Source: Minisyncoccia bacterium (GTDB lineage Bacteria > Patescibacteriota > Minisyncoccia > Phycocordibacterales > JAKFXT01). From it: a stretch of DNA of 64,000 nucleotides. Numbering within the stretch: position 1 is the first letter of the stretch; each line of letters starts with the position of its first letter. The notes below the pieces were generated by a model. That model was not told the origin of the DNA. It saw only the letters and a list, made by a program, of their open reading frames with translations, and did no database searches. Below, piece after piece: positions 9,677-47,209 of this stretch. The stretch spans positions 29,017 to 93,016 of the forward strand of contig JBGPJO010000001.1 of the NCBI GenBank assembly GCA_041485465.1, given 5' to 3'. Made by a program: the position numbers and the translations under genes.

Positions 9677-10372
9677 CTACATCCACCCCTTTTTTTCAAG
9701 GGCGTTTCGTGCCGCAGATTGCTCCGCTTCCTGCTTTGAGCGGCCTTCGCCCTCCGCAACCAACTCGTCATTCAAGAAAACCGCGACAGTAAAGTATTTG
9801 TCATGATCCGGCCCGACTCCCGACATGGTGCGGTAAGAAGGAGTAACCCCAAGCTCATCCTGAACCCGTTCCTGAAAATGACTTTTAGCGTCAAGCCAAA
9901 GCTTTTCATTAACGATCGTATCGGTGAGCGGAAAAAGCGTCTCGGTTATGAAGTGACGCGCCACAGTATATCCTTGGTCAAGAAAAATCGCCCCAACGAG
10001 CGCTTCGAAGGTATTGGCGAGAATATATTGCCTCGCGCGACCCGTGTCCTTTGATTCGCCCTTTGAGAGAAGCAGAAATTTTTCCATACCGAGCTTACTT
10101 GAAATTTCAGCAAGCGTGTTCGCGTTCACTAATGCAGAGCGGTATGAAGTTAAATCGCCTTCCGACCTATCCGGATACTTTTCATAGAGATATTCGGTCG
10201 TAATCAATTCTAAAACAGCATCTCCTAAAAATTCGAGGCGCTCGTTATGCTCAAGCTTCATCCGCTTGTGTTCATTGATGTAGGAGCGGTGGGTAAAAGC
10301 CTGAACAAGCAATTTTTTGTTTCTAAAATGAAGGCCTATGATTCTTTCGAATTGGCCGAAATCTACTGGCAT
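9677..10372 (-). CDS. rnc: Ribonuclease III
   Basis: RNase III signature ERLEFLGDAVL plus a C-terminal dsRBD. Confidence 0.9.
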   Translation of the reverse strand: MPVDFGQFERIIGLHFRNKKLLVQAFTHRSYINEHKRMKLEHNERLEFLGDAVLELITTEYLYEKYPDRSEGDLTSYRSALVNANTLAEISSKLGMEKFLLLSKGESKDTGRARQYILANTFEALVGAIFLDQGYTVARHFITETLFPLTDTIVNEKLWLDAKSHFQERVQDELGVTPSYRTMSGVGPDHDKYFTVAVFLNDELVAEGEGRSKQEAEQSAARNALEKKGWM

Positions 10373-17429: not shown

Positions 17430-19904
17430 TTATACCATCTCGTTTATTTTCAAAGAATAAGAATCTCTCAGAGATTCTTTCTCTACAAGATCGAGTGTTT
17501 TTGAAAAAGCGAGTTTTGCCGCCATGTGACTTGAAGAATAGCTTTCATCAAATGCCCCAACTAAAATCCCTATCACCTTTTCAAGCATCTCGTTTCTCCA
17601 GCTAGAGACGGCAGTGACTGCGTAATCATCGGCTCCTGGTTCACGCTCGATGCGAAAGCGATAGACTCGGTCAAGCTCGAACGCAACCGCTTTCACAAAA
17701 TCAGAAACGGCATGTCCCTGATGATTGAGTATCCGGAGGAAATTGAATATTTTTTTATGATCATTGTCAGCAATCCAGCGGATAAAAAGCGGCACCAGAG
17801 AAACGTAGGTTGAGAAAAGAATGGCCCGCGCCTTTTTACCATCAAGCAGAAGATAATTCCCTTCCAAGGTTGGGTACCATTCTTTAGCAAGCGTAATTAT
17901 CTGATTAAGTATCTTGTTTACATTTTGAGGGTTCCCTTCGGAAGCGGCTAGAACGATTTCAATTGCATCTTCCACAATAAGAGCCCCCTCTGCCCGCGCC
18001 ATGTCCTCAAGATTTTCTTTCACCTCTTCAGTTGAAGCCGCGTCCTTTAAAATTGGTAATTTTACATCTTCTAAAATGGGTTCCGTGACTTCGTTTTCAG
18101 CCCTATCCGCAGCTTCAGAAAAAGAAACCTGCCCAAAAGAGGAGTGTGTTTCATTGGTTTTTATTTTAGGAATTCTTTTTGTTATGAGAGTAAAAGAAAA
18201 TAGACGCCGATAGATCTGAAGATACGCAAGTCCAACTGAAAAAACCATGAGCATCAAGAGAAAGAGAAGCGTCTTAAAAACATCCCCTACTCCTGTGTAT
18301 GGTACTTGACTCAAGTAAATGGCCGCAAAAGCCGCAAGGGGGCTCGTTGTCGCGCGTGTCAAAACAACGGTCGGAGCGAAAGGTCCCCCGCCGCCACCCC
18401 CGCCGCCGCCACAATTAATTACACAACCACCTCCGCCTCCGCCTCCGCCGCCACCCTCCGTAACACTAATGGCCAGGTTCTTTTGATCAAAGCCGCACTG
18501 ATTAGCCGCCTTAATGGTTATGGTAAAACTACCGGTCGTTGTCGGCGTGCCGGAGAGTAGATTCGTTGAAGTTGAAAATGTGAGCCACGAGGGCAGATTC
18601 GTCACATCAAGCGTGTCGAGAGTACCTGAGGTGGTAAGGGTATACGAGAACGGCTGATTAACCACAACAGAGGCGAAGAGGCCGCTTGTGATTTGAGGCA
18701 CCGGGGCTGCTGAACAGCCTCCGCCACCACCCCCTTCCGTAATCGTTATGACAAGAGTTTTTTGATCAAAGCCGCAACTGTTTGACGCATTGAGCGTGAT
18801 AGTGAATGTGCCGGTCGTTGTAGGTGTTCCGGAAATAATCAGAGTTGAAGTCGAAAATGTGAGCCACGGAGGAAGGTTGGTTGCCAAAAACGTACTGACC
18901 GTCCCCGTTGCCGTCATTGTGTAACTGAAAGGAACTCCAACGGTACCGGATGCTGAAAGAGGGCCTGTAATCGAAGGCGCGGGTATTTGACACTGTCCTG
19001 CGGTAATAATTATGACAAGAGGAGCTGCTCCCGAACCACATTGATTTTGGGCGCTAATCGTTACCGTCGATGTTCCTACCGAAGTTGGTATTCCGGAAAT
19101 CACTCCCGTTGAAGTGGCGAGATGTAAACCGGGTGGCAAATTAAGTACCCCAAAAGAAGCCGCTGTATTGCTTGAAGTAATGCTATAGCTAAACGGCTGA
19201 CCAACAACTCCTTCGGCAAGAGAAGCACTGGTGATAATCGGCGCTCCGGGAATACATATAGCTCCCTTTACCGCGATGACAATCGTCATGTGGCAATGGC
19301 CACAACCATTTTGAGAAGTTAAAGCAACAGTTGAAGTGCCCATTTCAATCGGAGTTCCGGAAATGACGAGACCTGATAGATTGAGTCCTTGAGGAAGGCC
19401 GCTTGCGTTAACCGTGACCGAGTTAGTGCTGGTCGCAAGTTCTATAGTATAGCTGAAGGGCACTCCGATCGTTGCTTCAAGAGAAACATTTGTAAATTTA
19501 AAAATCGGCAAAACGCATTGACTGCTACTTGAACTTGAGGAACTGCTGGAACTGCTACTTGAACTCGAACCTTCATTTGAGCTCAAAGAAGAGTCCGAAG
19601 AATTACTACCACTTAAAGAAGAGCTCGAGTCCGAAGTTGAACTTGAAGGACTTGATGTGCTGCTATCGCCGGGAGCTGAAGCCACAGCGGTATCTGAAAC
19701 GCTTTCCGCGGACCCACTAGTAGCTGTAGAGGAAGACGATGCTATAGAAGATGTGGAAGCATCAGCCGCTTCCGCAATGACATGATAGAGGTTTGCCTCA
19801 AGATAACTATTGCCGGTAAACAAAAAAATCCCAAACAAAAGAGCCGAAAGACCGATCGCCGGTTTTAAATATTTTTTAGATTTTTTATTTTTTTCTCTGT
19901 TCAT
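17430..19904 (-). CDS. Cell-surface type I membrane protein with four putative Ig-like repeats
   Basis: Signal peptide, then a Ser-rich low-complexity stretch (~19520-19757). Four repeats of LPxGLxLsxxtGxISGTP...C follow, with poly-Gly linkers (18385-18459). Then a single TM helix (~18200-18340) and a ~290-aa C-terminal domain of unknown function. Confidence 0.6.
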   Translation of the reverse strand: MNREKNKKSKKYLKPAIGLSALLFGIFLFTGNSYLEANLYHVIAEAADASTSSIASSSSTATSGSAESVSDTAVASAPGDSSTSSPSSSTSDSSSSLSGSNSSDSSLSSNEGSSSSSSSSSSSSSSSSQCVLPIFKFTNVSLEATIGVPFSYTIELATSTNSVTVNASGLPQGLNLSGLVISGTPIEMGTSTVALTSQNGCGHCHMTIVIAVKGAICIPGAPIITSASLAEGVVGQPFSYSITSSNTAASFGVLNLPPGLHLATSTGVISGIPTSVGTSTVTISAQNQCGSGAAPLVIIITAGQCQIPAPSITGPLSASGTVGVPFSYTMTATGTVSTFLATNLPPWLTFSTSTLIISGTPTTTGTFTITLNASNSCGFDQKTLVITITEGGGGGGCSAAPVPQITSGLFASVVVNQPFSYTLTTSGTLDTLDVTNLPSWLTFSTSTNLLSGTPTTTGSFTITIKAANQCGFDQKNLAISVTEGGGGGGGGGGCVINCGGGGGGGGGPFAPTVVLTRATTSPLAAFAAIYLSQVPYTGVGDVFKTLLFLLMLMVFSVGLAYLQIYRRLFSFTLITKRIPKIKTNETHSSFGQVSFSEAADRAENEVTEPILEDVKLPILKDAASTEEVKENLEDMARAEGALIVEDAIEIVLAASEGNPQNVNKILNQIITLAKEWYPTLEGNYLLLDGKKARAILFSTYVSLVPLFIRWIADNDHKKIFNFLRILNHQGHAVSDFVKAVAFELDRVYRFRIEREPGADDYAVTAVSSWRNEMLEKVIGILVGAFDESYSSSHMAAKLAFSKTLDLVEKESLRDSYSLKINEMV

Positions 19905-19935
19905 AGATCTTTCGCTTTCTGATTTTTAGAAATGA

Positions 19936-20625
19936 TCAATTAAGATCATAACTACCGGCAAAGTTTGCTTCAACCACATAGCGATCTTCTTTCGTTCCAA
20001 AGCTGTTGCAGGTCGAAAGAATAAGCTCGTGATCGTTTGAGAAAGTGACACGTACTTCATCCGCCCGAGCGAGTCTCACTGAAAGTACGGTATAGCGATA
20101 CCCTCTCGTCTTTGAGAGGAGGTCTATTTCGTCTCCAAGTCCGAGTTCTTTTAAACCGTTAAAGATTTTAAAGTTCTGGTTGTGAATGACGGGAAGCGCT
20201 GAACTATGCCCGAAAATGAGGACGTTCCGGTCGCTCTCGAGATTCCCCGAACCCGGATAACGAACTGCACCACCAAGGAGCGCGCTGTTTAGGGTTGAGA
20301 CATCTTCACTTAGCGGGTTAAGAACCGCCGCATCAAGTCCAACTTTCGGAATAACAATTCTCACAGGATCAGCCGATTCCGCTTTTAAAGTCTTACCGGA
20401 GGGAGCTTTATTGTCAATTAAAACGGAAACGTCGGGGGACGAAACCTTGGTAGACGTATCATGGATAAAAATTGAAAAAAAAGCGTTATTGAGCTCCTCA
20501 GCCCCGATAGGAGAAAATCCCAAGGAAACACTCGCAATAAAAAGAATCGCAAAAATAATAAGCGACCACTTCAGAAGTTTCCGCTGTTTTTCTTTCCTTT
20601 CTTCTTGATTTTCTATATATACCAT
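19936..20625 (-). CDS. Sortase family transpeptidase
   Basis: N-terminal TM anchor, conserved His (LIFGHSS), TLxTC-type active site (LILSTCNSFG) and a downstream Arg. Confidence 0.75.
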   Translation of the reverse strand: MVYIENQEERKEKQRKLLKWSLIIFAILFIASVSLGFSPIGAEELNNAFFSIFIHDTSTKVSSPDVSVLIDNKAPSGKTLKAESADPVRIVIPKVGLDAAVLNPLSEDVSTLNSALLGGAVRYPGSGNLESDRNVLIFGHSSALPVIHNQNFKIFNGLKELGLGDEIDLLSKTRGYRYTVLSVRLARADEVRVTFSNDHELILSTCNSFGTKEDRYVVEANFAGSYDLN

Positions 20626-35040: not shown

Positions 35041-36024
35041 TTAATTTTCTTTCACCGCGTTCGGGGCTTTTCTTCCTTCAAGCACTTCAATAATATTCGC
35101 TGCCGCCAATTCCGCCATCTTGTCCCTCGTCTTTACGGTTGCGGAAGCAATGTGCGGCGTAATAATTACATTTTCAAGCTCAGCAAGACCAGGCGCTAAA
35201 TTCGGCTCATTCTCAAAAACGTCAATCGCCGCTCCAGCGATGACATTATTTTTAAGAGCATCGACAAGCGCCGCTTCGTCGATAACCGGGCCGCGTGAGG
35301 TATTAATGAGATACGCTGTTTTTTTCATCATCCTGAGACGATCAGCGTTCATAAGGTGGTGCGTCGACGGTAAGAGCGGCACGTGGATCGAAATGAAATC
35401 GGCGTCTTTCAAAACTTCCTCGGCCGTCGCCTTGAATGTTGCGCCGAGTTTTTTCTCCATAGTCTCATTCTGCCTGACATCGTAATAAATAATTTTCATG
35501 CCGAAACCAAAAGCCGCTTTGCTGGCAACGCTCTCCCCGATCCGGCCGGCGCCTAAAATACCGAGTGTCTTCCCTTGAAGATCCGTACCAAGAAACAGTA
35601 AGGGATCCCAGCCGATATATTTCCCCGCGCGAAGAAATCTATCTCCCTCGACTATTCGGCAGGCAAGCGAAATAAGAAGCGCAAATGTGTGTTCGGCAAC
35701 GGTATTGGTGAGCACGCCAGGAGTGCTTGAAACGATAACTCCGCGCGCTTTCGCTTCTTTGAGATCGACATTGTTCACCCCAACGGCAAGGTTGGCAAAA
35801 ATTTTTGCCGAGGATGCCGCGTCAAACGCATCTTTATCTATAGAATCGGTCAAAAGGGAGAGTACTGCGTCATACGGTTTTTCTTTAAGCGCCGTTACTA
35901 GTTCGCCTTTGGTAAGTGGCGCTCCTTTAGTGCTCACGTTAACTTCGTAACCTTTTTCTTTGAGCATAAGTATCCCGGCCTCTGGAATCTTCCTCGTAAC
36001 GTAAATTTTGTACACAGTGGTCAA
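35041..36024 (-). CDS. D-isomer-specific 2-hydroxyacid dehydrogenase (glyoxylate/hydroxypyruvate reductase-like)
   Basis: NAD-binding GILGAGRIGESVA and catalytic R/E/H arrangement (INTSRGPVIDEAAL...). Confidence 0.8.
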   Translation of the reverse strand: MTTVYKIYVTRKIPEAGILMLKEKGYEVNVSTKGAPLTKGELVTALKEKPYDAVLSLLTDSIDKDAFDAASSAKIFANLAVGVNNVDLKEAKARGVIVSSTPGVLTNTVAEHTFALLISLACRIVEGDRFLRAGKYIGWDPLLFLGTDLQGKTLGILGAGRIGESVASKAAFGFGMKIIYYDVRQNETMEKKLGATFKATAEEVLKDADFISIHVPLLPSTHHLMNADRLRMMKKTAYLINTSRGPVIDEAALVDALKNNVIAGAAIDVFENEPNLAPGLAELENVIITPHIASATVKTRDKMAELAAANIIEVLEGRKAPNAVKEN

Positions 36025-36885
36025 TTAATAGTTATTAAAAATCCTAAGTTTTTCGACGACGACTTTTTGAATAGCTTCAATTGCAGGCCGCATCAGTTTA
36101 TAGGGAGCGACCTCGTCCGGATGTTCCGAAAGTGACGCTTTAACGGCATCGCGAAAGGCGACCCTGATTTCGGTATTGATGTGAACGATTGACACTCCTG
36201 CCGCTATTGCCGCTTTGAAATCTTGAGGTGTTGTACCGGAGCCGCCATGAAGGACAAGAGGAACTCCTGAGGAGATGCGAATCGCTTTAATGAGCTCAAT
36301 ATCAAGCCTCGGCTCTGGAGCGTTTTTAAGCATACCGTGAATGTTTCCGACTGCAGGCGCAAAAAGGTCAACGCCAGTTTCGGCAACATAACGTTTTGCT
36401 TCTTCCGGTTTCGTCATGTTTTCCGGTCCGACACCTTCCGGCAGTTTATCGAGAAGCTTTGAGGAAGTGCCGATGTAACCAAGTTCCCCTTCAACAACGA
36501 TTTCAGGATCAACACTCCGTGCATACAAAACACATTTTTTTGTCTGTTCAATATTCTGCTCGATCGGAAGCTTCGCGCCATCGTAAATCGCCGCATTAAA
36601 GCGGGCGTCAATTGCTTCTTTAAATCGTTCAAATGAATAGCTGTGGTCGGCATTAAGGAAAATCGGGTAACCGAATTCATCCTGAAGACTCTGAACGACA
36701 GCCTTTGCCTGCCGAATGCCGAAAAAAGCTCTTTCCCCTTCGGACAATCCGATAATTACTGGAACATCAAGAAGTCGCGCTGCCCCCCAAATACCCCAAA
36801 GTGCCTCCATGTTTGAGATATTAAAATGACCGATCGCCACTTTTTTTTCTTCAGCTTCCTGAACACACTCGCGCAAGGTCTTCAT
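36025..36885 (-). CDS. fba: Class II fructose/tagatose-bisphosphate aldolase
   Basis: Class II FBA core. Start set at the ATG at 36885 (MKTLRECVQ). Confidence 0.8.
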   Translation of the reverse strand: MKTLRECVQEAEEKKVAIGHFNISNMEALWGIWGAARLLDVPVIIGLSEGERAFFGIRQAKAVVQSLQDEFGYPIFLNADHSYSFERFKEAIDARFNAAIYDGAKLPIEQNIEQTKKCVLYARSVDPEIVVEGELGYIGTSSKLLDKLPEGVGPENMTKPEEAKRYVAETGVDLFAPAVGNIHGMLKNAPEPRLDIELIKAIRISSGVPLVLHGGSGTTPQDFKAAIAAGVSIVHINTEIRVAFRDAVKASLSEHPDEVAPYKLMRPAIEAIQKVVVEKLRIFNNY

Positions 36886-36931
36886 GAAAAAAGTATACCA
36901 CGGGGGAAATTGATCATGGTATAATTTTTTC

Positions 36932-37924
36932 ATGACCGAGTTTGATTTCGTTGGGGTCGGCGACATTGTGACGGACGCCTTCATCCGCATTAAAGACGCA
37001 CACCTGACGTGTACCATTGATCGTGAAAAATGCGAACTCTGCCTGCGGTTTGGCGATAAGGTCCCCTACGAATCAGTTGAGGTTATCTCCGCTGTCGGCA
37101 ATTCTCCGAATGCTTCGGTTTCTGCAGTAAGACTCGGACTCAAAACTGCGCTCGTTAGCGACCTCGGAGACGATATTATCGCCCAGGATTCGGTTCGAAC
37201 ACTGAAAACAAACAATGTAGACACGACGTTCGTCAAAATCCACAAGGGCAAGCGAAGCAACTACCACTACGTACTGTGGTACGAAGTCGACCGCACCATT
37301 TTAGTCAAACACCAAGAATATCCTTACCAATTTCCGGATATCGGAACTCCTCAGTGGCTGTATCTAAGTTCTTTGTCCGAACACTCCGTTGATTACCATG
37401 AAGAAATCGCCCGCTACATCACGAAAAATCCGGGGGTTAAGCTCGCGTTTCAACCGGGTACGTTTCAAATAAAGCTCGGGGCACAAAAACTGAGAGACAT
37501 CTATCAAAGAACCGAAATATTTTTCTCTAACATTGAAGAGTCGCAGAAAATTTTAAACACGGACAAAAAAAATATCGGAGAGCTTTTGAAGGGTATTCAT
37601 TCCCTCGGTCCGAAAATTGTTTCTATTACCGACGGTCCCAAGGGAGCATACGCTTTTGATGGGCAAAATATGTGGTTCATGCCGCCTTTTGACCCACTGA
37701 AAGAGGCGTATGAGCGAACGGGTGCGGGGGATGCATTTGCTTCGGCGGTGACGGTCGCGCTTGCGCTTGGTAAATCTCTTGAAGAGGCGCTTCTGTGGGG
37801 ACCGATCAACTCAGGCTCTGTCGTCCAGTATGTTGGGGCGCAAAAAGGACTGCTCTCGCGCGAAAAACTTGAAGAATATTTGAAAAACGCCCCCAAAGAC
37901 TACCGGCCAAAGAAACTCTTTTAA
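36932..37924 (+). CDS. PfkB-family carbohydrate kinase
   Basis: Ribokinase-fold protein with the C-terminal ERTGAGDAF motif. Confidence 0.8.
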   Translation: MTEFDFVGVGDIVTDAFIRIKDAHLTCTIDREKCELCLRFGDKVPYESVEVISAVGNSPNASVSAVRLGLKTALVSDLGDDIIAQDSVRTLKTNNVDTTFVKIHKGKRSNYHYVLWYEVDRTILVKHQEYPYQFPDIGTPQWLYLSSLSEHSVDYHEEIARYITKNPGVKLAFQPGTFQIKLGAQKLRDIYQRTEIFFSNIEESQKILNTDKKNIGELLKGIHSLGPKIVSITDGPKGAYAFDGQNMWFMPPFDPLKEAYERTGAGDAFASAVTVALALGKSLEEALLWGPINSGSVVQYVGAQKGLLSREKLEEYLKNAPKDYRPKKLF

Positions 37925-38913
37925 TTTTTTCTCGCAATAACCTTTTTGACGGCCTCTATAATGTGCGAGATGCCCATGCCGTAGTGTTCAATCAACTCTT
38001 CCGGTTTTCCCGACTGTCCGAAGAGATCAGAAACTCCGACAAATTCAATCGGCACGGGAAAATTCTTTGAGAGACACTCGGCGATTGCCGAACCGAAACC
38101 CCCCGCCTGCTGATGTTCTTCGACAGTAACCGCGGCTTTACATTCACGTGCCGCGGCAGTGACCGCCTCGGAATCAAGCGGTTTAATGGTTGCGACATTT
38201 AAAATTTTGACCGAGACACCTTCTTCTTTGAGTTTCTTCGCCGCCTGAAGCGCATTATAGAGAAGTGCGCCGGTTGCAAAAATTGCCACCTGCGGATTCT
38301 CGCCCAGCCAAAAAATCTGAGCTTTTCCGATTTTAAAGGGCGTTGCCTCCGTCGTCATAATCGGCGTTTTGTCTCTGGCAAGACGGATATACACCGGCCC
38401 TTTTATTTTCGCCGCGGCAAGGGTCGCCTTCCTCGCTTCAATAGAGTCGCACGGAGAAAGAACGCTCATGCGTGGGAGAACTCTCATTAAAGCGATATCC
38501 TCAATCGCCTGATGCGTCCCGCCGTCGGGACCAACCGAAACGCCCGCGTGCGAGCCGGCGATAACTACCTTTCGATCGTTGTAGCAAATAGTTGTTCTGA
38601 TCTGTTCCCAATTTCTCCCCGGGGAAAACATTGCGTATGAGGTAACAAAAGGAATTTTGCCCATCGCCGCCATACCGGAGGCAACGGTTACTAAGTTTTG
38701 TTCGGCAACACCTATTTCAACGAATCGGTTCGGAAATTTATTTTTAAAAAGGTGCATTTGGGTTGATTCAGTCAAATCAGCGCAGAGCCCCACAACTCTC
38801 TCGTCCCCTTCTCCTGCGGCAAGTAATCCTTCACCGAATCCTTTTCGTATCGGAAGCTGTTCAACATCTTTCGAAAAAAGTTTTGGATTGAGTTGTAGCT
38901 TTTCGTTTATCAT
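37921..38913 (-). CDS. Transketolase, C-terminal (pyrimidine-binding) subunit
   Basis: Pyr and C-terminal domains of a split transketolase. Confidence 0.85.
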   Translation of the reverse strand: MINEKLQLNPKLFSKDVEQLPIRKGFGEGLLAAGEGDERVVGLCADLTESTQMHLFKNKFPNRFVEIGVAEQNLVTVASGMAAMGKIPFVTSYAMFSPGRNWEQIRTTICYNDRKVVIAGSHAGVSVGPDGGTHQAIEDIALMRVLPRMSVLSPCDSIEARKATLAAAKIKGPVYIRLARDKTPIMTTEATPFKIGKAQIFWLGENPQVAIFATGALLYNALQAAKKLKEEGVSVKILNVATIKPLDSEAVTAAARECKAAVTVEEHQQAGGFGSAIAECLSKNFPVPIEFVGVSDLFGQSGKPEELIEHYGMGISHIIEAVKKVIARKN

Positions 38914-38921
38914 ACAAATCG

Positions 38922-39281
38922 TTAGTGAAAAGTAGGGAGAAAAGCAAAACCGCTCACTATGTTAAACAGAACGTATAAGGAAAAAAGGTAAACAAATATT
39001 TTAAAAATCTGAAATGTACGGCTAGTTCTTGCGGCGGAAAAATTCTTAACTATGCGCATAATATAGATTGGTGAAAGTAGTGATGGCACAGTCGTTGGCC
39101 AGAGGAGAAGTCCCGTGAGCGCTATCCAGCCGAGGGCCACACCCTCATCAGATGAATTGCCTGGAAATAGATGCCCTAGAAGAATTCTAAGCAGAAGCGC
39201 CGCTACAATAATGACTGACGCGAGATTTAAGTAGAACACCAACTTCTCTACCTTACTTGAAAAATTCTTTGATTTATTCAT
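38922..39281 (-). CDS. Hypothetical membrane protein inserted between the two transketolase subunit genes
   Basis: 119 aa with three predicted TM helices. Confidence 0.4.
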   Translation of the reverse strand: MNKSKNFSSKVEKLVFYLNLASVIIVAALLLRILLGHLFPGNSSDEGVALGWIALTGLLLWPTTVPSLLSPIYIMRIVKNFSAARTSRTFQIFKIFVYLFSLYVLFNIVSGFAFLPTFH

Positions 39282-40146
39282 GCTCGCTTTTTATTTGTCC
39301 GCCAAGAGTGCGCAGTTCCGCAAGTGCCATCTCCCCTTCTTCTTTATTCGGCGGTTTTCCATGCCATTCGAACTTGCGTTCGAATTCTTTTACCCCCTTC
39401 CCTGGAATAGTATGCGCGATAATTATCGACGGCTTGTTAAAAATTGCCTTCGCCTCATCAAGTGCGTTCACTATTTCTTCGAAATCGTGTCCATTTATCT
39501 CCTGAACATGCCATCCCCACGCCTCCCATTTTTCTTTCAGTGGCTCAAGCGGCATGATGTCTTCGGTAAAACCGTCTATCTGAATATTGTTGCGGTCAAT
39601 AACAGCAACTAGGTTGTGAAGCTTTTCTTTGCCCGCAAGCATTCCTCCTTCCCAAGTATTGCCGGCGTCCATCTCGCCATCGGACAAAAGACAATAGAAA
39701 AATCTTCCGCTTGATTGCCCGCGGTCAATTCTGTCGGCAAGCGCCATGCCGACCGCCTGAGAAAGTCCGGAACCAAGAGGCCCTGAACTTGTCTCCATTC
39801 CCGGAAGCCATTCTCGATGCGGGTGTCCTTGAAGACGCGAGCCGAATTTCCGAAGTGTCCGAAGTTCTGAAATCGTAAAATACCCAGCGTGAGCCATCGA
39901 AGCATAAAGCACCGGACAAATATGGCCGTTTGAAAGCACCAGCCGATCACGCTCCTCCCACAAGGGGTCTTTGGGGTTGTGCTTTAAAACATGAAAATAA
40001 AGCGCGGTAAAAATATCAGCCATGCCTAGAGGTCCCGCCGTGTGACCGGAACCAGCAGTAATGAGCATGTCAATTATCGACGTGCGAATTTTATTCGCCG
40101 TCATTTCAAGATCCCAAATTTTTGTGTCATCAAGCTTCTCCATCAA
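39274..40146 (-). CDS. Transketolase, N-terminal (TPP-binding) subunit
   Basis: GSGHTAGPLGMAD and TPP-binding GDGEMDAGNTWE-type motif. Confidence 0.85.
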   Translation of the reverse strand: MMEKLDDTKIWDLEMTANKIRTSIIDMLITAGSGHTAGPLGMADIFTALYFHVLKHNPKDPLWEERDRLVLSNGHICPVLYASMAHAGYFTISELRTLRKFGSRLQGHPHREWLPGMETSSGPLGSGLSQAVGMALADRIDRGQSSGRFFYCLLSDGEMDAGNTWEGGMLAGKEKLHNLVAVIDRNNIQIDGFTEDIMPLEPLKEKWEAWGWHVQEINGHDFEEIVNALDEAKAIFNKPSIIIAHTIPGKGVKEFERKFEWHGKPPNKEEGEMALAELRTLGGQIKSEHE

Positions 40147-40862
40147 GAAAGATTCCTCAGTCCTTCAATTGCTGCTTTCATATTACCATTTTCAAAAATA
40201 TACGAACCGGAAACGAGACGATTTGCTCCCGCCCTGACAAGCTGTACCGCCCTCTCTTCATTCACCCCGCCGTCAACGCTTATCATAAGCTTCGGATAGT
40301 TGCGCCTCAATTCTCGTATCCTTCCGAGGGAGCGCTCGTCGAACGGCTCCCCCTGAAAACCGATCTTAGCAATACCCATCACCTGGACGAAATCAACAAG
40401 CGGGATGTGCTTCTCCCAGATTTCAAGAGGAGTGTCATTGTTTGCGGCAAGACCGATTTCCGGAGCGAGAGGGTCTTTATTCGGACGTCCATATTCCGCC
40501 CTTATTTCTTCTATAAGTTTCGGAAGCTCATTCGTGCTCTCGACGTGAAGAATTATTCTCTTTACTCCAATCTTAATCCAATCGAAGAGATCGGCATCCG
40601 AGGAGGAGGTCATGAGGTCGGCTTCGTAATCAATTTTTTCCCATTCGGGAAGTCCTTTATTTTCCGAAAGTAAGGCGGCAAAATCGGGATCATTATATGA
40701 AAAAAACGGCCAGGTCTTCTGTGGAACAAACTTGCCGTCCATAAGATCTATTTGAACGGAAGAAACGTAGGACGAAACGCCCGCCACTTTTTCTTCAAGA
40801 TCGCGGAAGTTTCGAGGCATAATCGCGGGAATTATCTCTATCATTGATAAAGTATACCCCAC
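40143..40862 (-). CDS. rpe: Ribulose-phosphate 3-epimerase family protein
   Basis: TIM-barrel epimerase motifs (VQIDLMDGKFVP, ISVDGGVN). Confidence 0.7.
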   Translation of the reverse strand: MGYTLSMIEIIPAIMPRNFRDLEEKVAGVSSYVSSVQIDLMDGKFVPQKTWPFFSYNDPDFAALLSENKGLPEWEKIDYEADLMTSSSDADLFDWIKIGVKRIILHVESTNELPKLIEEIRAEYGRPNKDPLAPEIGLAANNDTPLEIWEKHIPLVDFVQVMGIAKIGFQGEPFDERSLGRIRELRRNYPKLMISVDGGVNEERAVQLVRAGANRLVSGSYIFENGNMKAAIEGLRNLS

Positions 40863-41171
40863 GGGGGGAAGACGTGAGACTTACTGAGGCAAAATGCCCT
40901 GACTTCCACCTACAAGCAATTGATTTGATGCCGGTTCTTCACAAGGAGCTCCCGAAGAAGCTGCCCCCGAAAAAATATAAGACAGCGAGAGTGACAATAA
41001 CAATGGCGACAGAAGTTGCTACAGGGAGTGTTACGTAGCCTCGATAAAAATGGTGCTTCATGTTGTTCCCTAAAAGCATACCACCCCATCCCTAAGACTC
41101 AAATAGAAATGTGGATAAAACCTTTACAATTTTAAGGAAAAATCACGTATAATTCAAAGGTAAAGAGACTC

Positions 41172-43271
41172 ATGGCAATATTTCGAAAGAACTTTTTTCC
41201 TTTTGCCGCCCTTCTTCTTATAATTGGGTTTTTGGTGTATCTTGGAGCGTATTCCGATTTAAATCCTCATAAGTATGTCGAGGCTGGATTTTCGAATAAC
41301 CTCTCCGGCTATGCTTGGAGCGACAATATTGGCTGGATTAGTTTTAATTGCACTGATACAAACTCTTGTGGGACAGCGGATTATGGAGTAAATGTAGACC
41401 AGGCCACCGGTCTTCTTTCCGGTTACGCCTGGAGCGATAACGTCGGCTGGGTTACTTTCAATCAAAGTGATCTTGCGGGCTGTCCCGCCTCTCCCTGCAA
41501 AGCCCAACTTTCAAATGGAAATCTCTCTGGCTGGGCAAAAGTGATTGCCGCGGATGCAACGTCATCAATTCCTGTCCAAGCAACGACAACGGTTTTTTCT
41601 GTAGCCGGAACACAAACGTATGTCGTGCCCGTAGGTGTTTCTACTATCACGGTTAAATCGTGGGGTGCGGGAGGCGGTGGAGGAAAAAATTCCGGAGGCA
41701 GTAACGGGGGAAACGGTGGTGGAGGCGGATATACACAGGCTGACATTTCTGTCTCAGCCGGAGAATCTCTTACTGTTATTGTCGGAGGGGGTGGAGGAAT
41801 ACCGGGAAGTACGGCGGGTGGCGGGGGTGGTGGTTCGTCGGCGGTAAAGCGTGTTTCTAATTTTCTTATTCAAACGGGTGGCGGGGGTGGAGGAGGAGGG
41901 ACTTGCGGCTGTGAAAATGGAGGTGCGGGTGGAGCGGGCGGGGGAACAACCGGAGCGGGAGGAGTGAGTGCTTCAGGAAATGCCGGAGCGGGAGGAACAC
42001 AGTTTGCGGGAGGTGTGGGAGGTACTGGTCATTCCGGCCAAACAGACGGGGCGGCTGGGTTACTGAACGCAGGTGGGGGCGGTGGTAATGGATCAGGAAG
42101 CGGCACAGGAGGTGGAGGCGTGGCAGGAACACTAAACGGAGGGGCCGGAGGGAATGGAAGTTTTGATGCTGGCGGAGGTGGTGGAGGGGGAGGTTATTAC
42201 GGTGGAGGCGGAGGGGAAGACGGATTCTTGGGCGCAGGTGGAGGCGGAGGCGGATCAGGATTTGTCACAGGAGTGAACACTTCCCTTATCGTAGGTAGTG
42301 GAAAGACCCCAGCAAACAATGCCGATCCTGATTATGGCGGAACCGCCGGAGTAGGCGGCAACGGAGGTGGACCCGTGACAGCGGGAAACACGGGAAGAGT
42401 AGTAATAATCGTGAATGCTTCATCTCCGGGAAGCGGAGGCGCAGCCGGCGGATGGAATGGCTGGATAAGTTTGAAAGGTTCAAATGAAAGTTCAAGTTAT
42501 GGAGTTAGTCTTGCCGGCAACGCACTTCAGGGTTATGCCTGGGATGCATCCGATGTTACAGGGCAAGCCATCGGTATCGGCTGGATTAATTTCAACCCTA
42601 TTTCGTCCGGTGGCGGAGGCCTCCCACCCGCGGGAACCCCTGTTGGCGGTGTCTTCCTCTCTTCTTCAACTTCACCCTCTGTCACTTTAAGCGCCCAAGA
42701 CTCATTCGTTCCCCAAGGAGGATCAACGTTACTTTCTTGGACATCTCAAAACGTTACCTCCTGCTTGGCAAGTTTGGGAACAAGCGGATGGCCCGGAAGC
42801 AAAGCACTTTCAGGTTCTCAAGGCGTCGGCCCCATAAACGTCCAGACCCAGTACCAACTTGATTGTTCGGGGGTTTTCGGCTCAACAACAGCAAGCGTTA
42901 CTGTTGGTATAATTCCACCGGATTTTTCTCTTAATAAATCGAATGATCTTACGATTTCATTTACCGGTGGTAATCTGACTTCAAACCAGACAACAATCAC
43001 TGTCATTCCTCAAAATAGTTTTGCGGGAACAGTCGCCCTCTCGGCAGGCCCTGCAACCATAGGTGGAGTCCCGGTAAGCTATAATTTCTCAAATGGCTCC
43101 CTTACTTCTTCTCAATATGGAACCGGCGCAACCTTTCAAATCATCGCGAGCCAGGCGATTCCGAAAGGAACGTATGTCGTCACTGTCACCGGCACGAGTG
43201 GCGCTATATCCCACCAAATCAATATCAACTTAAATTCTTCAGGCGCAAATCCCATATTCCAGGAATTTTAA
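41172..43271 (+). CDS. Secreted glycine-rich protein with three GYAWSDNIGWISFN repeats
   Basis: N-terminal TM/signal, three copies of sGYAWSdNiGWisFN, then ~300 aa that are more than 50% Gly, and a C-terminal non-Gly domain. Confidence 0.6.
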   Translation: MAIFRKNFFPFAALLLIIGFLVYLGAYSDLNPHKYVEAGFSNNLSGYAWSDNIGWISFNCTDTNSCGTADYGVNVDQATGLLSGYAWSDNVGWVTFNQSDLAGCPASPCKAQLSNGNLSGWAKVIAADATSSIPVQATTTVFSVAGTQTYVVPVGVSTITVKSWGAGGGGGKNSGGSNGGNGGGGGYTQADISVSAGESLTVIVGGGGGIPGSTAGGGGGGSSAVKRVSNFLIQTGGGGGGGGTCGCENGGAGGAGGGTTGAGGVSASGNAGAGGTQFAGGVGGTGHSGQTDGAAGLLNAGGGGGNGSGSGTGGGGVAGTLNGGAGGNGSFDAGGGGGGGGYYGGGGGEDGFLGAGGGGGGSGFVTGVNTSLIVGSGKTPANNADPDYGGTAGVGGNGGGPVTAGNTGRVVIIVNASSPGSGGAAGGWNGWISLKGSNESSSYGVSLAGNALQGYAWDASDVTGQAIGIGWINFNPISSGGGGLPPAGTPVGGVFLSSSTSPSVTLSAQDSFVPQGGSTLLSWTSQNVTSCLASLGTSGWPGSKALSGSQGVGPINVQTQYQLDCSGVFGSTTASVTVGIIPPDFSLNKSNDLTISFTGGNLTSNQTTITVIPQNSFAGTVALSAGPATIGGVPVSYNFSNGSLTSSQYGTGATFQIIASQAIPKGTYVVTVTGTSGAISHQININLNSSGANPIFQEF

Positions 43272-43279
43272 TTACTTTC

Positions 43280-44164
43280 ATGACTTCTTCATCTTTATCG
43301 AGCGCATTTAAAAAAATAAAACCGATTCTTGTCGGCCTTGTTATCGTCATCGGCATTTCTTACGCTCAAGCCGCATGGGTGGGGCCTACGGCAACACCTC
43401 CCGGAGGAAATACTGCCGCGCCGATCAATGTCGGCAGCCTCTTTCAGCAGAAAACCGGTGACTTGTGGGCTAAGAGCATGGGAACAGATAACGGTTACTG
43501 CATCGGAACAAGTTGTATTACGGCGTGGCCTTCAGGAGGAGGGCTAGGGCTTAAGAGCGTTCAAATTTTTACCTCTAATGGGACATGGACCAAGCCTGCC
43601 GGGATTACTAAAATTCAAATGATTGTTGTGGGCGGTGGAGGTGGTGGTGGCACTGTCGGCGCCGCCTCTACCGCTGAAGGCGGTGGAGGCGGGGGTGGGG
43701 GTGGCACATGCATGAAATTGATAAATGTATCAGGAATTACCAGTGTGCCCGTCACAGTTGGCGGTGGAGGCGCTGCTGCTCCTGTTCCCGGAACTCAAGG
43801 AAATGGCACGGCTGGTGGAACAAGCAGTTTCGGAACATATTGTTCCGCAACGGGCGGTGGGGGTGGTATCGGTGGGGGTGGTAATTCTCCTGGCGGTCTT
43901 GGTGGCATCGCCTCCGGCGGCGATCTGAATATTGGCGGGAATGATAGCGACTATGGTATTTATGAAGGTGTTGCTGGACACGGCTACGGTGGTCATGGTG
44001 GCGCTTCGGTCTATGGTGGCGGTGGCTATGGCGGTATAGGTAACGGCACAAGTGTTGCTCAACCGGGTCGCCCTTATGGAGGTGGAGGAGGCGGAGGCAA
44101 TGGTTCCGCCGGTGGGGCAAGAGGTGCAGCTGGCGTTGTCTTTGTCTGGGAGTATGGTAACTAG
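43280..44164 (+). CDS. Secreted glycine-rich protein, paralog 1 (conserved N-terminal module)
   Basis: Signal peptide ending ...SYAQA. Conserved module AWVGPTATPPGGNTAAPINVGSLFQQKTGDLWAKSMGTDNGYCIGTSCITAWP, then TWTKPAGITKIQMIVVGGGGGGG and a Gly-rich body. Confidence 0.6.
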   Translation: MTSSSLSSAFKKIKPILVGLVIVIGISYAQAAWVGPTATPPGGNTAAPINVGSLFQQKTGDLWAKSMGTDNGYCIGTSCITAWPSGGGLGLKSVQIFTSNGTWTKPAGITKIQMIVVGGGGGGGTVGAASTAEGGGGGGGGGTCMKLINVSGITSVPVTVGGGGAAAPVPGTQGNGTAGGTSSFGTYCSATGGGGGIGGGGNSPGGLGGIASGGDLNIGGNDSDYGIYEGVAGHGYGGHGGASVYGGGGYGGIGNGTSVAQPGRPYGGGGGGGNGSAGGARGAAGVVFVWEYGN

Positions 44165-44214
44165 CTAACTTAAATAAAATTCGTTAGCTTAAAAAATTAT
44201 TTAACTTAATTATT

Positions 44215-44877
44215 ATGATGCAAAAACCTCTCAACACTATAAAAGTCCTCTTTCTCGGGCTTCTCCTCGCCCTTGGCATCTCATATGTTCAAGCCACATG
44301 GGTTGGTCCTACAGCAACGCCGCCGGGAAACAACACAACCGCACCAGTGAATATCGGCAGTCTCTTCCAGCAAAAGACGGGAGATTTCTGGGCAAAGAGT
44401 GTGGGCTCTGATAATGGATTTTGTATCGGTATTTCATGCATCACCGGCTGGCCGCAGAGCTGTCCTGCCGGGCAAGCAATTAGTGCGATTAGTACAACGG
44501 GAGCGGTCACCTGTGTGAGTGCGGGTGGAGGAGGTGGAGGAGGCCTTGCGACGAGCAGTCTTCCTATGGCAAAGGCGTGGGGGTATGTGAAAATAACCTC
44601 AGGGGTCCCGACACTCCAAAGTCCGTCATTTAATGTGGCAAGCATAGCGGATACTGCCGTCGGGAAGCTTACGGTAAATCTAATAACTCCCTTTTCTTCA
44701 GCAAATTATGTGGTAGTTGCTAATGCCTGGAGGGTAAACGGCGTATATATGAACCCCACGATCTTGAGTGCATCCTCATTTACGATTTATAGTTTTATAA
44801 CCGGGAGCAATAATGCAAGCGTAGGCAATACACTTGTTGATCCTGATTTTTATTTTTTCGTAGTTTTTGGGCAATAA
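44215..44877 (+). CDS. Secreted protein, paralog 2 of the same N-terminal module
   Basis: Same signal peptide and WVGPTATPPGNNTTAPVNIGSLFQQKTGDFWAKS...CIGISCITGWPQSCPAGQAI module. Different C-terminus. Confidence 0.6.
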   Translation: MMQKPLNTIKVLFLGLLLALGISYVQATWVGPTATPPGNNTTAPVNIGSLFQQKTGDFWAKSVGSDNGFCIGISCITGWPQSCPAGQAISAISTTGAVTCVSAGGGGGGGLATSSLPMAKAWGYVKITSGVPTLQSPSFNVASIADTAVGKLTVNLITPFSSANYVVVANAWRVNGVYMNPTILSASSFTIYSFITGSNNASVGNTLVDPDFYFFVVFGQ

Positions 44878-44883
44878 TCAAAG

Positions 44884-45666
44884 ATGAAGAATTATCTCAA
44901 TACACTAAAAATTCTCACTCTTGGACTTCTCCTCGCCCTTGGCATCTCATATGTTCAAGCCGCATGGGTTGGTCCTACAGCAACGCCGCCGGGAAACAAC
45001 ACAACCGCACCAGTGAATATCGGCAGTCTCTTCCAGCAGAAGAGTGGTGACTTGTGGGCACGGTCAATGGGAACCGACAACGGATTTTGTATTGGAAAAA
45101 GTTGTGTGACCGGCTGGCCCCAGAGCTGTCCTTCCGGGCAAGCGATTAACGAAATTAGCACCAATGGAGCGGTTACATGTGTTGCAGCAAGCGGAGGGAC
45201 GGGGGGATCGCTTGCCGGAAAATCCTGCCCTTCAGGTCAATACGTGAGTGGAGTGGACGCAGTCGGTAATCTTATCTGCGGAACTCCATTGGGCGGAGGA
45301 AGTACTAACGTTACATTGGTTAATGGCGCGCACACAGGAGTGGATTGTGTGGCAATCGGCGGCAGTGTCTCAACTATCGGCACTAATACATCTGTCTGTC
45401 GCGCTAGTGGGGCGTTATGTCCTTCAGGTTGGACAAAGTACCAAAACTGGTCCACCGGATCTTCGAACACGTGTAACGGGAATATTTGCACGACGAGCCC
45501 GGGCCCGCAGGGCACCTCTTGCACGGTATCTGGTTGGGCATGGGCAAACCAGACACCTTTAAGTTGTACCTATCATAGATATGCTGATAGCGGCTTAGGA
45601 GGTTGTGTCATTCTCAGTCAAAATCAAACATGCGTCGGACCTACCATAGAAGTCGGCTGTTACTAA
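44884..45666 (+). CDS. Secreted Cys-rich protein, paralog 3 of the same N-terminal module
   Basis: The DNA of its 5' ~290 nt is nearly identical to 44215-44500. The C-terminus is Cys/Thr/Ser/Gly-rich. Confidence 0.6.
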   Translation: MKNYLNTLKILTLGLLLALGISYVQAAWVGPTATPPGNNTTAPVNIGSLFQQKSGDLWARSMGTDNGFCIGKSCVTGWPQSCPSGQAINEISTNGAVTCVAASGGTGGSLAGKSCPSGQYVSGVDAVGNLICGTPLGGGSTNVTLVNGAHTGVDCVAIGGSVSTIGTNTSVCRASGALCPSGWTKYQNWSTGSSNTCNGNICTTSPGPQGTSCTVSGWAWANQTPLSCTYHRYADSGLGGCVILSQNQTCVGPTIEVGCY

Positions 45667-45687
45667 AATTGTTCTTGGAAATTCAAA

Positions 45688-45716
45688 AAACGCGCCCGAG
45701 GGGGCGCGTTTTTGTT
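45688..45716 (+). terminator. Rho-independent terminator closing the glycine-rich cluster
   Basis: AAAAAACGCGCCCGAGGGGGCGCGTTTTTGTT: a GC-rich hairpin with A-tract before and T-tract after (bidirectional). Confidence 0.75.
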
Positions 45717-45734
45717 ATAATCCCCTTCAATACT

Positions 45735-46439
45735 ATGAATCCTATTCCCTATCCCCTAAGGATAAATCGCTACTTAGCGCTCAAGGGCGTCGTCACCCGT
45801 CGCGATGCTGATATTCTTATCGCCCAAGGAAAAATAAAAATTAACGGTCATACTGCAAAGCTCGGCGATATAATTAAAGAGAATGACAGAGTCACGGTTG
45901 AACAAAAACCGAATAAAAAGTATTCCTACGTCGCTTATTACAAGCCCCGGAACGTAATCACCCATTCCCCACAACCAGGCGAGAGAGATATTCAGGGAAT
46001 GCTCAAGACGAAATCGCTTTTCCCTATTGGTAGGCTCGACAAAGATTCCGAAGGTCTCGTCATCTTGACTAACGACGGCAGAGTAACTGACAGGCTTCTC
46101 AACCCGAAATATGAACACGAGAAGGAATACGAGGTAGAAACAGACAGGCCACTTAAACCTAATTTTAAAGAACGCATGGAGGGCGGTGTCGTAATTGAAG
46201 GATACAAAACCAAACCGGCAATTGTGGGAACTCTTGGTCCAAAGAGGTTCAGAATCGTTCTTACCGAAGGTAAAAAACACCAGATCAGGAGAATGTCTGC
46301 GGCACTTGGCTATCAGGTGAAAAATCTAAAGAGACTGCGGATTATGAATATCAAGCTTCAAGAATTAAAACAAAACGAGTCACGGATTATTCAAAAAGAA
46401 GAACTTGAAGAGTTTCTTAGAAACCTCGGACTTTCTTAA
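45735..46439 (+). CDS. rRNA pseudouridine synthase (RsuA/RluB family, S4 domain)
   Basis: S4 domain (RINRYLALKGVVTRRDAD) and catalytic GRLDKDSEGLVILTNDG. Start set at ATG 45735. Confidence 0.8.
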   Translation: MNPIPYPLRINRYLALKGVVTRRDADILIAQGKIKINGHTAKLGDIIKENDRVTVEQKPNKKYSYVAYYKPRNVITHSPQPGERDIQGMLKTKSLFPIGRLDKDSEGLVILTNDGRVTDRLLNPKYEHEKEYEVETDRPLKPNFKERMEGGVVIEGYKTKPAIVGTLGPKRFRIVLTEGKKHQIRRMSAALGYQVKNLKRLRIMNIKLQELKQNESRIIQKEELEEFLRNLGLS

Positions 46440-47209
46440 TTTCTGAGTCCGGCCCCCCTCCTGAAAAGATACAGTAAGAGTAAGAGAAAGATGACAATAA
46501 GGCTAAGAAGAATAAAGAAACTCATTAAAACACTGACGTCGGAAATGCCCAAAAAACCGAAACGGAAACCGTTTACCATATACAGTATCGGATTGAATTT
46601 CGAAACATTCTGCCAAAGCGGCGGCAAAAGCAAGATTGAATAGAAAACCCCGCCAAGATAGGTAAGCGGGGTCAGCACAAATGTCGGGACAATTGCGATT
46701 TGATCGAAATTCTTCGCATACAAAGCGTTTAAAAGCCCCACCATGGAAAAAAGTACTGCTGTCAGAATTCCAAAGGCAAGGATAATCGGAATGCTGTGAA
46801 TTGAAAGGTGGGCAAAAAGAAGCGAAACAAAAAGAACCGCGGTACCGACAACAAGCCCCCGGATAAGGCCCGCCGTTACGTATCCGGCGATGACGACATA
46901 GTTCGGGGTCGGTGAAACAAGAATTTCCTCGATACTTTTGGTGAATTTCGCGAAATAAAAACCGGAAACAACCTGCTGAAAAGCGTTGGTAAGAACCGCC
47001 ATCATCACGAGTCCCGGAACGATAAATTGCATATATGAAAATCCGCCAATACCCCTCACTTGAGAACCGACGAAGGTTCCAAAAATAAGGAAGTAGAGAC
47101 TTGTTGTTATGGCCGAAGGTAAAATTGTCTGCGACCAAAGCCTGAAAAGCCGCGAGGTCTCTTTGCGAATGATGGTCATATATGAAATGAAAGCGCGTTT
47201 TGGTTCCAT
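46436..47209 (-). CDS. ABC-2 type transporter permease
   Basis: Six-TM ABC-2 permease. Overlaps the ATPase gene by a few nucleotides. Confidence 0.75.
   Translation of the reverse strand: MEPKRAFISYMTIIRKETSRLFRLWSQTILPSAITTSLYFLIFGTFVGSQVRGIGGFSYMQFIVPGLVMMAVLTNAFQQVVSGFYFAKFTKSIEEILVSPTPNYVVIAGYVTAGLIRGLVVGTAVLFVSLLFAHLSIHSIPIILAFGILTAVLFSMVGLLNALYAKNFDQIAIVPTFVLTPLTYLGGVFYSILLLPPLWQNVSKFNPILYMVNGFRFGFLGISDVSVLMSFFILLSLIVIFLLLLLYLFRRGAGLRN

Follow-up and report, generated by a model that had tools for sequence, protein, structure and literature searches.

How do adjacent genes come to share nearly identical DNA at their 5' ends when the rest of their sequences have nothing in common? The question is raised by three paralogous genes in a stretch of 64,000 nucleotides, hereafter called the window, from a Minisyncoccia bacterium (assembly GCA_041485465.1, contig JBGPJO010000001.1, positions 29,017 to 93,016 of the forward strand). 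The three open reading frames (ORFs) lie in tandem on the + strand, as do all features of this locus described below. Paralog 1 (43280-44164, 294 aa), paralog 2 (44215-44877, 220 aa), and paralog 3 (44884-45666, 260 aa) each have a predicted signal peptide and a shared N-terminal module (the N-module). In paralog 1 these are followed by a Gly_rich_2 domain, in paralog 2 by one CPxGQ hairpin and an all-beta C-terminal domain, and in paralog 3 by two CPxGQ hairpins and a Cys-rich C-terminal domain. The analysis presented here indicates that 113 bp shared by paralogs 2 and 3 were homogenised by recent non-reciprocal homologous exchange, that is, by gene conversion. The full explanation, in which a conversion tract, recombining repeats, and a surface-fibre operon are taken together, was given a probability of about 0.72.

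The first-pass annotation of this DNA had placed a repeat of about 290 bp at the starts of paralogs 2 and 3, and a repeat search located homologous segments at the same place, at 44217-44516 (copy A) and 44883-45182 (copy B). The two copies are 300 nt long, align without gaps, are offset by 666 nt from start to start, and are 82% identical. Together with the module DNA of paralog 1 (43334-43530), which is 70-74% identical to the other two and served as an internal control, they account for every repeat of at least 45 nt in the window. The segments had been described as near-identical over almost their whole length, but over the span in question identity is 230 of 283 nucleotides (81.3%) and 76 of 94 amino acids (80.9%), and near-identity is confined to a 113-nt core. 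This core, at 44260-44372 in paralog 2 and 44926-45038 in paralog 3, matches at 112 of 113 positions. The lone mismatch, an A at 44296 versus a G at 44962 (Thr/Ala), divides it into exact runs of 36 nt and 76 nt. Identity is about 53-67% at 44218-44259 and about 63-67% at 44373-44449, with a small bump of 90% around 44450-44479, and beyond about 44520 similarity falls to background; across the flanks as compared (14 codons on the 5' side and roughly 50 codons on the 3' side) it ranges from 53 to 80%. A 68-nt probe from the tract was found exactly twice in the window, which holds no third copy. The tract comprises codons 16-53, from the hydrophobic region of the signal peptide through '...SLFQQ'; the first third of the signal peptide and the second half of the module lie outside it, although the annotation had both fully covered. 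The description of the downstream gene bodies as unrelated was borne out, since no nucleotide or protein similarity was detected past the module and the CPxGQ hairpin.

Synonymous sites showed the contrast between tract and flanks most clearly. The number of synonymous substitutions per synonymous site (dS, Nei-Gojobori) between paralogs 2 and 3 was 0.034 in the tract (44260-44373), compared with 1.38 for the flank on the 5' side and 1.72 for that on the 3' side. Thirty-six codons of the tract were identical, one differed synonymously (the boundary codon), and one non-synonymously, while the corresponding counts downstream were 12, 11, and 7. All 37 third codon positions were identical in the tract, versus 43% just downstream. 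In the same register, paralog 1 encodes almost the same peptide as paralogs 2 and 3 with different codons: it is 73-74% identical to either at the nucleotide level, with 49% identity at third positions and 15-16 synonymous codon differences. Outside the tract, paralogs 2 and 3 are 69% identical to each other and 61-68% identical to paralog 1 (68% for paralogs 1 and 3). These values indicate that the DNAs of the three modules diverged anciently, with saturated synonymous sites. Because dS is saturated in the flanks and about 0.03 in the tract, only the 113-nt piece is young, and the modules themselves are old. When the 55 mismatches over 299 sites were shuffled 200,000 times, none of the shuffles contained a 113-nt window with one or no mismatch, an exact run of 76 nt, or 37 matching third positions (p < 5e-6), which excludes chance clustering. 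Concerted evolution by gene conversion between paralogs 2 and 3, one of the possibilities offered in the first-pass annotation, is therefore the best reading of the repeat. The phenomenon itself is of a well-known kind, ordinary concerted evolution; it is the protein family and its gene partner that are unannotated.

The window itself lies on an NCBI contig of 174,666 nt. Exact look-ups of paralogs 2 and 3 yielded no contig that encodes them. Contigs from other assemblies of the same population were reached through two module proteins (P0001 and P0152) and through the 699-aa protein encoded directly upstream of paralog 1, and are referred to here, like the other loci compared, by L numbers. 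One contig (L004; GCA_041490985.1, JBGPUD010000271.1) matches window positions 41001-44719 at 100%. Another (L003; JGI 3300053057) matches 35575-44322 with one single-nucleotide polymorphism (SNP) and stops inside the tract, and a third (L002; JGI 3300052992) matches 44700-46009, also with one SNP. Together, these three other assemblies reproduce the order of paralogs 1-2-3, both copies of the tract, and the A/G difference between 44296 and 44962. In this assembly-level comparison, both tract copies are real and not an artefact of assembly.

A fourth contig has a different structure. L001 (JGI 3300053058, Ga0534156_0043366; 2,567 nt) consists of window positions 43498-44295 joined to 44962-46730, with no mismatches on either side of the junction and exactly 666 bp less than the window. 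The absent segment, 44296-44961 on the + strand, comprises the body of paralog 2, the 6-nt spacer, and the 5' end of paralog 3, its register being arbitrary within 36 nt. Diagnostic bases are of the paralog 2 type through 44259 and of the paralog 3 type from 44962 on, which puts the crossover within the perfectly identical 36-nt stretch at 44260-44295. The resulting gene is an in-frame hybrid with the signal peptide of paralog 2 and the body of paralog 3; its product, P0001 (260 aa), was found by the profile search described below and has its first 14 residues from paralog 2 and the remainder from paralog 3. This structure is the product expected from homologous recombination between the tract copies, and conversely, a 666-bp circle integrating into the L001 arrangement would yield that of the window. 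The repeat had been proposed as a recombination substrate for the swapping of C-terminal domains. If it is a true recombinant, this hybrid gene with its crossover in the tract supports the first part of that proposal; what it would record is the loss of a tip, and no allele with one tip replacing another was seen in this population.

Whether L001 represents a real recombinant haplotype or a collapsed assembly is close to an even bet. The alternative, that only the conversion is real, falls slightly short of an even chance. According to it, a 666-bp loop was skipped in a low-coverage de Bruijn graph, and the tract arose passively from tandem paralogy and does nothing to change the repertoire of tips. 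The deletion haplotype is known from one 2,567-nt short-read contig from one sample, it carries no SNP that would mark a separate strain, and loops closed by repeats are well known to collapse in assembly. Sibling and related assemblies also break at these repeats: L003 ends within the tract at 44322, L020 and L021 begin 19-35 nt 5' of their module genes, and L018 is only 852 nt long. In L001, on the other side, the switch is limited to the 36-nt exact stretch between diagnostic bases 44259 and 44296, the product is a clean in-frame gene, and perfect tracts in other genomes, described below, show recombination acting at these modules. Moreover, if the contig came from a de Bruijn assembly, k-mers longer than about 38 across the junction should exist in the reads. 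A scan of metagenome DNA with a degenerate WVGPTATPPG pattern yielded five loci, none from the population of the window, and neither these five loci nor the four found in a scan of genome contigs included an orthologous three-gene locus from a sister species. Short-read contigs of several studies (L003, L020, L021, and L018) were observed to end in or just before N-module DNA.

The N-module defines a large family. In all three paralogs, a K-rich and then L-rich N-terminus ending in V/A-Q-A is followed by the motif A/T-W-V-G-P-T-A-T-P-P-G-x-N-T-x-A-P-x-N-x-G-S-L-F-Q-Q-K-x-G-D-x-W...G-x-C-I-G-x-S-C-x-T-x-W-P. The N-terminus is a putative Sec-type signal peptide, with cleavage predicted at A-x-A just before an invariant Trp. 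Neither Pfam nor NCBIfam has a model for the module, an ordinary homologous-protein search with the 103-aa N-module gave no matches, and a search with full-length paralog 2 gave eight, all through the module. A profile built from the three modules was run exhaustively against 1.84 billion cluster representatives (clusters at 50% identity) and matched 3,032 at E <= 1e-3, of which 224 reached E <= 1e-10; the matched proteins range in length from 91 to 3,523 aa. The consensus of the module, about 55 aa long, is W-x-G-P-T-x-x-P-P-x-x-N-x-x-A-P-x-N-x-G-x-x-x-Q-x-K-x-G-D-x-W...C-I-G-x-x-C, in which W28, P31, P36, N39, P43, N45, Q51, K53, G55, and G71 are nearly invariant. The W-x-G-P-T motif sits at residue 27 (median), right behind the hydrophobic N-terminus, and all family members start with a signal peptide. 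The four module loci from the genome-contig scan, among which the genome of the window did not appear, came from Candidatus Paceibacterota, Saccharibacteria, and one unclassified metagenome-assembled genome (MAG). MAGs of the first two groups are the nearest genomic relatives, and the window itself probably derives from a bacterium of the Candidate Phyla Radiation (CPR, Patescibacteria). No paper was found in the literature on the N-module, on the accessions, or on tail-fibre-like proteins in CPR bacteria.

An AlphaFold2 model of a paralog-3-type protein (145 sequences) had a mean predicted local distance difference test score (pLDDT) of 64 and a predicted template-modelling score (pTM) of 0.29. 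It contained a helix at residues 3-27, a module that was mostly coil or extended with small disulfide-type hairpins, and hairpins at residues 86-101 and 120-133. Paralog 2 modelled alone had a mean pLDDT of 43. A hairpin motif, C-P-x-G-Q-x8-G-x3-C, was noted 3' of the module, once in paralog 2 (44458-44514) and twice in paralog 3 (45124-45180 and 45220-45276, residues ~81-99 and ~113-131), with up to 13 matches in a 3,523-aa relative, P0009.

The regions that follow the module are heterogeneous. Among 145 representatives, Pfam domains in the C-termini included the Peptidase_S74 intramolecular chaperone (16 proteins), Gly_rich_2 (9), Ig-like, T4 gp34/gp36/gp38, collagen, Hint, and others, and a single Shufflon_N. 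Residues 101-289 of paralog 1 match Gly_rich_2 (PF21722) at 42.6 bits, against a gathering threshold of 24.3, and the protein also matches tail-fibre PHROGs (phrog_863 at 5.4e-44 and four others). Residues 117-219 of paralog 2 match PHROG 11355, 'tail fiber protein', at 4.5e-9, and there is a weak tblastn match to a phage tail fibre. Two of the three paralogs therefore have C-termini that are homologues of the distal regions of tail fibres in phages. The Cys-rich C-terminus of paralog 3 had no match in Pfam, NCBIfam, or PHROG, and the C-termini of paralogs 2 and 3 were absent from the other top-150 relatives.

These matches, and the Peptidase_S74 and T4 gp34/36/38 domains of family members, would also be expected if the genes belonged to a phage or prophage and the repeat reflected the usual mosaic recombination among tail-fibre cassettes. 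That origin is very improbable. A tblastn search of 50,697 phage genomes with the N-module gave no match, every member of the family begins with a signal peptide, and no phage structural genes were seen among the Pfam-scanned ORFs of the window. The genes have housekeeping neighbours, and in one relative (L017) the whole cluster lies between the genes for elongation factors EF-G and EF-Tu. Because the N-module is unmatched in phage genomes and the neighbours are housekeeping genes, the proteins are predicted to be cellular, secreted, and tail-fibre-like, and not part of a prophage.

Homogenised module DNA was found again in other genomes. In L019 (ENA ANAN16 scaffold_213, 152 kb), tandem module genes encoding 362 and 324 aa contain a perfect 270-nt direct repeat (8871-9140 and 9982-10251). 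It starts 19 nt before the ATG and spans the ribosome-binding region and the first 84 codons; mismatches then appear at every third base, and after these no similarity is left. It is a stronger example of a conversion tract than that of the window. L017 (GCA_035708165.1) also has two module genes, separated by 4.8 kb, with 88% identity across 206 nt. Several of the top representatives likewise have N-modules that are 86-99% identical and C-termini with no detectable relationship (P0069/P0107/P0076/P0039, P0105/P0131, and P0088/P0138). Because homogenisation recurs in unrelated CPR genomes, a homogenised 5' module over unrelated tips is a trait of the family and not an accident.

The first-pass annotation had also offered recent duplication, in this case a tandem duplication of paralogs 2 and 3 after which the C-terminal and flanking parts were replaced or diverged fast. 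The two genes are adjacent, and they have in common an extra CPxGQ hairpin and the 90% patch at 44450-44479, neither of which paralog 1 shares. This explanation is nevertheless rejected and considered highly improbable. Outside the tract, paralogs 2 and 3 are about as diverged from each other as from paralog 1; dS is 1.4-1.7 on both sides of the tract, the first 14 codons included; and a dS near 0 in the middle of a segment with values above 1 on both sides is impossible without recombination. Least probable of all is selection on the nucleotides themselves, whether for a structured or leader element in the mRNA, for the binding of a protein or sRNA, or for the site of a site-specific recombinase. 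In its favour, the tract does start where the signal peptide is encoded, a region in which features of the mRNA can be important, and that of L019 takes in the ribosome-binding region. Codon preference or a DNA or RNA element cannot, however, explain the identity, because paralog 1, in the same operon, uses different codons for a nearly identical peptide. In addition, the tract is less prone to fold than its shuffles (z = +1.78) and has no Rfam match, inverted repeats of 45 nt or more are absent, no recombinase was found among ORFs at 0.2-20.6, 36-49.5, and 49.9-61.6 kb, and the extent of the tract varies by genome, from 113 nt here to 270 nt in L019.

The three converted or related genes are the last of four tightly packed + strand genes that form an operon on the core chromosome of a CPR/Patescibacteria-like bacterium. 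The first gene (41172-43271) encodes the 699-aa protein mentioned above, which has a hydrophobic N-terminal segment, two 'GYAWSDNIGWI(S/T)FN' repeats, and a long Gly-rich region, and is here called the GYAWS-repeat protein. The spacers are 50 nt between paralogs 1 and 2 and 6 nt between paralogs 2 and 3. An intrinsic terminator at 45686-45718 on the + strand, in which a GC-rich stem of 12 bp precedes a run of U (-23.5 kcal/mol, z = -3.39), closes the operon, and a pseudouridine synthase gene comes after it.

The GYAWS-repeat protein has no match in Pfam or NCBIfam, yet its gene accompanies the module genes widely. Nine loci of varied CPR origin have a gene with 'G-Y/W-x-W-S-x-x-I-G-W-I' repeats immediately 5' of a module gene and in the same orientation: the window, L007 (3-1313), L008 (3842-5116), L010 (6777-7934), L011 (6479-7915), L012 (6488-7915), L013 (4796-6229), L014 (1435-2499), and L017 (6861-7829). 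In L016 it lies just downstream of the module gene. The GYAWS and module genes look like a conserved, undescribed gene pair.

Other neighbours of the module genes were observed in relatives. In L014 (1093-1434), L015 (869-1117), L017 (6442-6882), and L019 (8578-8868), the gene just before the GYAWS or module genes encodes a small membrane protein (82-146 aa, one membrane pass) that contains 'xEKxxLLxxL' repeats; nothing equivalent was seen 5' of 41172 in the window. The cluster in L017 (4158-16090), made up of the small membrane protein, the GYAWS protein, two module fibres, and Gly-rich and Cys-rich proteins, is inserted as a whole between the EF-G and EF-Tu genes, in the ribosomal str/S10 region. 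Type IV pilus genes (a PilB-type ATPase, PilC, and small proteins) are found 0.3-2.2 kb from module genes in two unrelated lineages (L014, 3415-7628; L019, 13185-18958; L020, 3204-8977), and small proteins of the pilus locus in L014 start like pilins ('MKGFSLLEIII...'). There are no type IV pilus genes within about 8 kb of the window locus. A link of the module genes to pili is possible but weak. The paralogs themselves were rejected as type IV pilins: the hallmark of pilins is a class III signal peptide (G / F/M-x-x-x-E) with an N-terminal hydrophobic helix, and here the N-termini are K-rich, then L-rich, then V-Q-A / A-W-V-G-P, with no G-F-x-x-x-E.

A mechanism can be proposed for how such an operon might work. 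The paralogs would be secreted or surface-anchored fibres, and their variable C-termini would be tips that bind different targets. The conserved N-module may dock on a conserved partner; because the GYAWS gene is linked to the module gene, the co-encoded GYAWS-repeat protein is the most plausible candidate. Docking would account for the strong conservation of the N-module at the protein level, and that conservation may also supply the homology by which tips are homogenised, lost, and possibly exchanged. The exact direct repeats of 36 nt and 76 nt, 666 bp apart, would be long enough for RecA-type recombination, and a crossover between them would delete the tip of paralog 2 and leave an in-frame hybrid gene.

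Apart from the single contig behind the deletion, several points weigh against this interpretation. Surface location, signal-peptide cleavage, the shape of the fibres, and their docking on the GYAWS protein are predictions; the structure models are of low confidence (mean pLDDT of 64 and 43); and sequence searches of the PDB returned no meaningful relative. Tandem arrays are also not universal, since more than one module gene was present within the fetched flanks in only two of 11 other independent loci (L017 and L019). A broader extension of the reading is tentative and, for now, unlikely. It holds that these genes belong to an undescribed surface-fibre system widespread in the CPR/Patescibacteria, with the GYAWS protein as the cell-side partner, fibres docked through the N-module, and interchangeable tips, derived from tail fibres, that recognise host cells. 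The module DNA would then be a homology handle by which RecA-type recombination homogenises, deletes, and possibly imports tip cassettes.

Known systems offer partial parallels. In Helicobacter pylori, the outer-surface adhesin paralogs babA/babB and sabA/sabB have near-identical 5' (signal-peptide) segments and divergent receptor-binding parts, and RecA-dependent gene conversion and crossover between such paralogs create chimeric genes with the loss of one specificity. The bab genes occupy dispersed loci in a cultivated pathogen, and their 3' ends are also shared. The likeness lies in surface paralogs with near-identical 5' segments, the surface role being inferred here. The paralogs described here differ in being in tandem in one operon, in sharing only the 5' module, and in having C-termini that are non-homologous rather than diverged alleles. 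In the distal tail-fibre locus of T-even phages (gp37/gp38), recombination at short conserved motifs swaps adhesin specificity. The present family resembles these fibres in its conserved proximal and variable distal parts, in short conserved DNA that may serve as crossover points, and in the gp34/36/38, Peptidase_S74, and Gly-rich domain types of its members, but its genes are cellular, encode signal peptides, and lie among housekeeping genes, and its N-module is absent from the searched phages.

A looser likeness is to polymorphic toxin, contact-dependent inhibition (CDI), and Rhs systems, in which a conserved N-terminal trafficking part is joined to variable C-termini diversified by recombination at a conserved junction (PMC3482391). 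The module proteins also combine a conserved N-terminal part with highly variable C-termini. A polymorphic toxin system was rejected, as there were no toxin families, immunity genes, or small ORFs in the 50-nt and 6-nt spacers between the genes. Unlike polymorphic toxin loci, this locus lacks 5'-truncated orphan cassettes, and each paralog is complete with its own start codon and signal peptide.

The R64 shufflon (PilV) and the Gin and Cin systems of Mu and P1 rely on a site-specific recombinase whose targets are short inverted repeats flanking a single expressed gene; in Mu and P1 these systems control invertible tail-fibre segments. They resemble the window locus in combining a constant N-terminal part with alternative C-terminal tips, which in those systems changes what is bound, but the repeats here are direct and 113 nt long, and the paralogs are separate genes. 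A shufflon or invertase was rejected: inverted repeats of at least 45 nt are lacking from the window, those near the locus are short and at chance level, and no site-specific recombinase was seen within about 8 kb of it. Diversity-generating retroelements (DGRs) have a nearby reverse transcriptase and a pair of template and variable repeats that differ at many adenines, with the variable repeat at the 3' end of the target gene. A DGR was likewise rejected, as the repeat has one mismatch only, sits at the 5' end of each gene, and is coding in both copies; no reverse transcriptase was found among 34 ORFs scanned with Pfam, a scan that did not take in the ORFs at 20.7-36 kb.

Beyond the operon, the housekeeping neighbours include a split transketolase, an aldolase, ribulose-phosphate epimerase, a PfkB kinase, the pseudouridine synthase, and an ABC transporter, with rpoB, dnaE, and SMC farther off. 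The transketolase is divided into two genes, for the N-terminal half and the pyrimidine-binding/C-terminal half, at 37921-40146 on the - strand; they adjoin the ribulose-phosphate epimerase and class II aldolase genes, an arrangement consistent with a reduced, CPR-type genome. A second surface-protein locus, unrelated to the module paralogs, lies within 17430-20625 on the - strand, where a sortase gene (19936-20625) is found beside a gene for an 824-aa protein with He_PIG Ig-like repeats. The module paralogs were rejected as sortase substrates, as their C-termini have no LPXTG.

Module repeats break or collapse short-read assemblies, and the copy number and tip repertoire of these genes in MAGs are likely under-reported. 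The window locus provides a candidate recombinant from a natural population, with its breakpoint mapped to 36 nt, that is checkable in public reads. The larger interest lies in the family itself: at least 3,032 clusters at 50% identity share an unannotated N-module, with a linked second gene that is also unannotated. The host-recognition molecules of bacteria that live attached to other cells are largely unknown, and in such bacteria the family seems to form a major group of secreted, tail-fibre-like proteins that has gone unstudied. If the proposed system is real, these episymbionts would gain population-level variation in attachment specificity without a dedicated recombinase.

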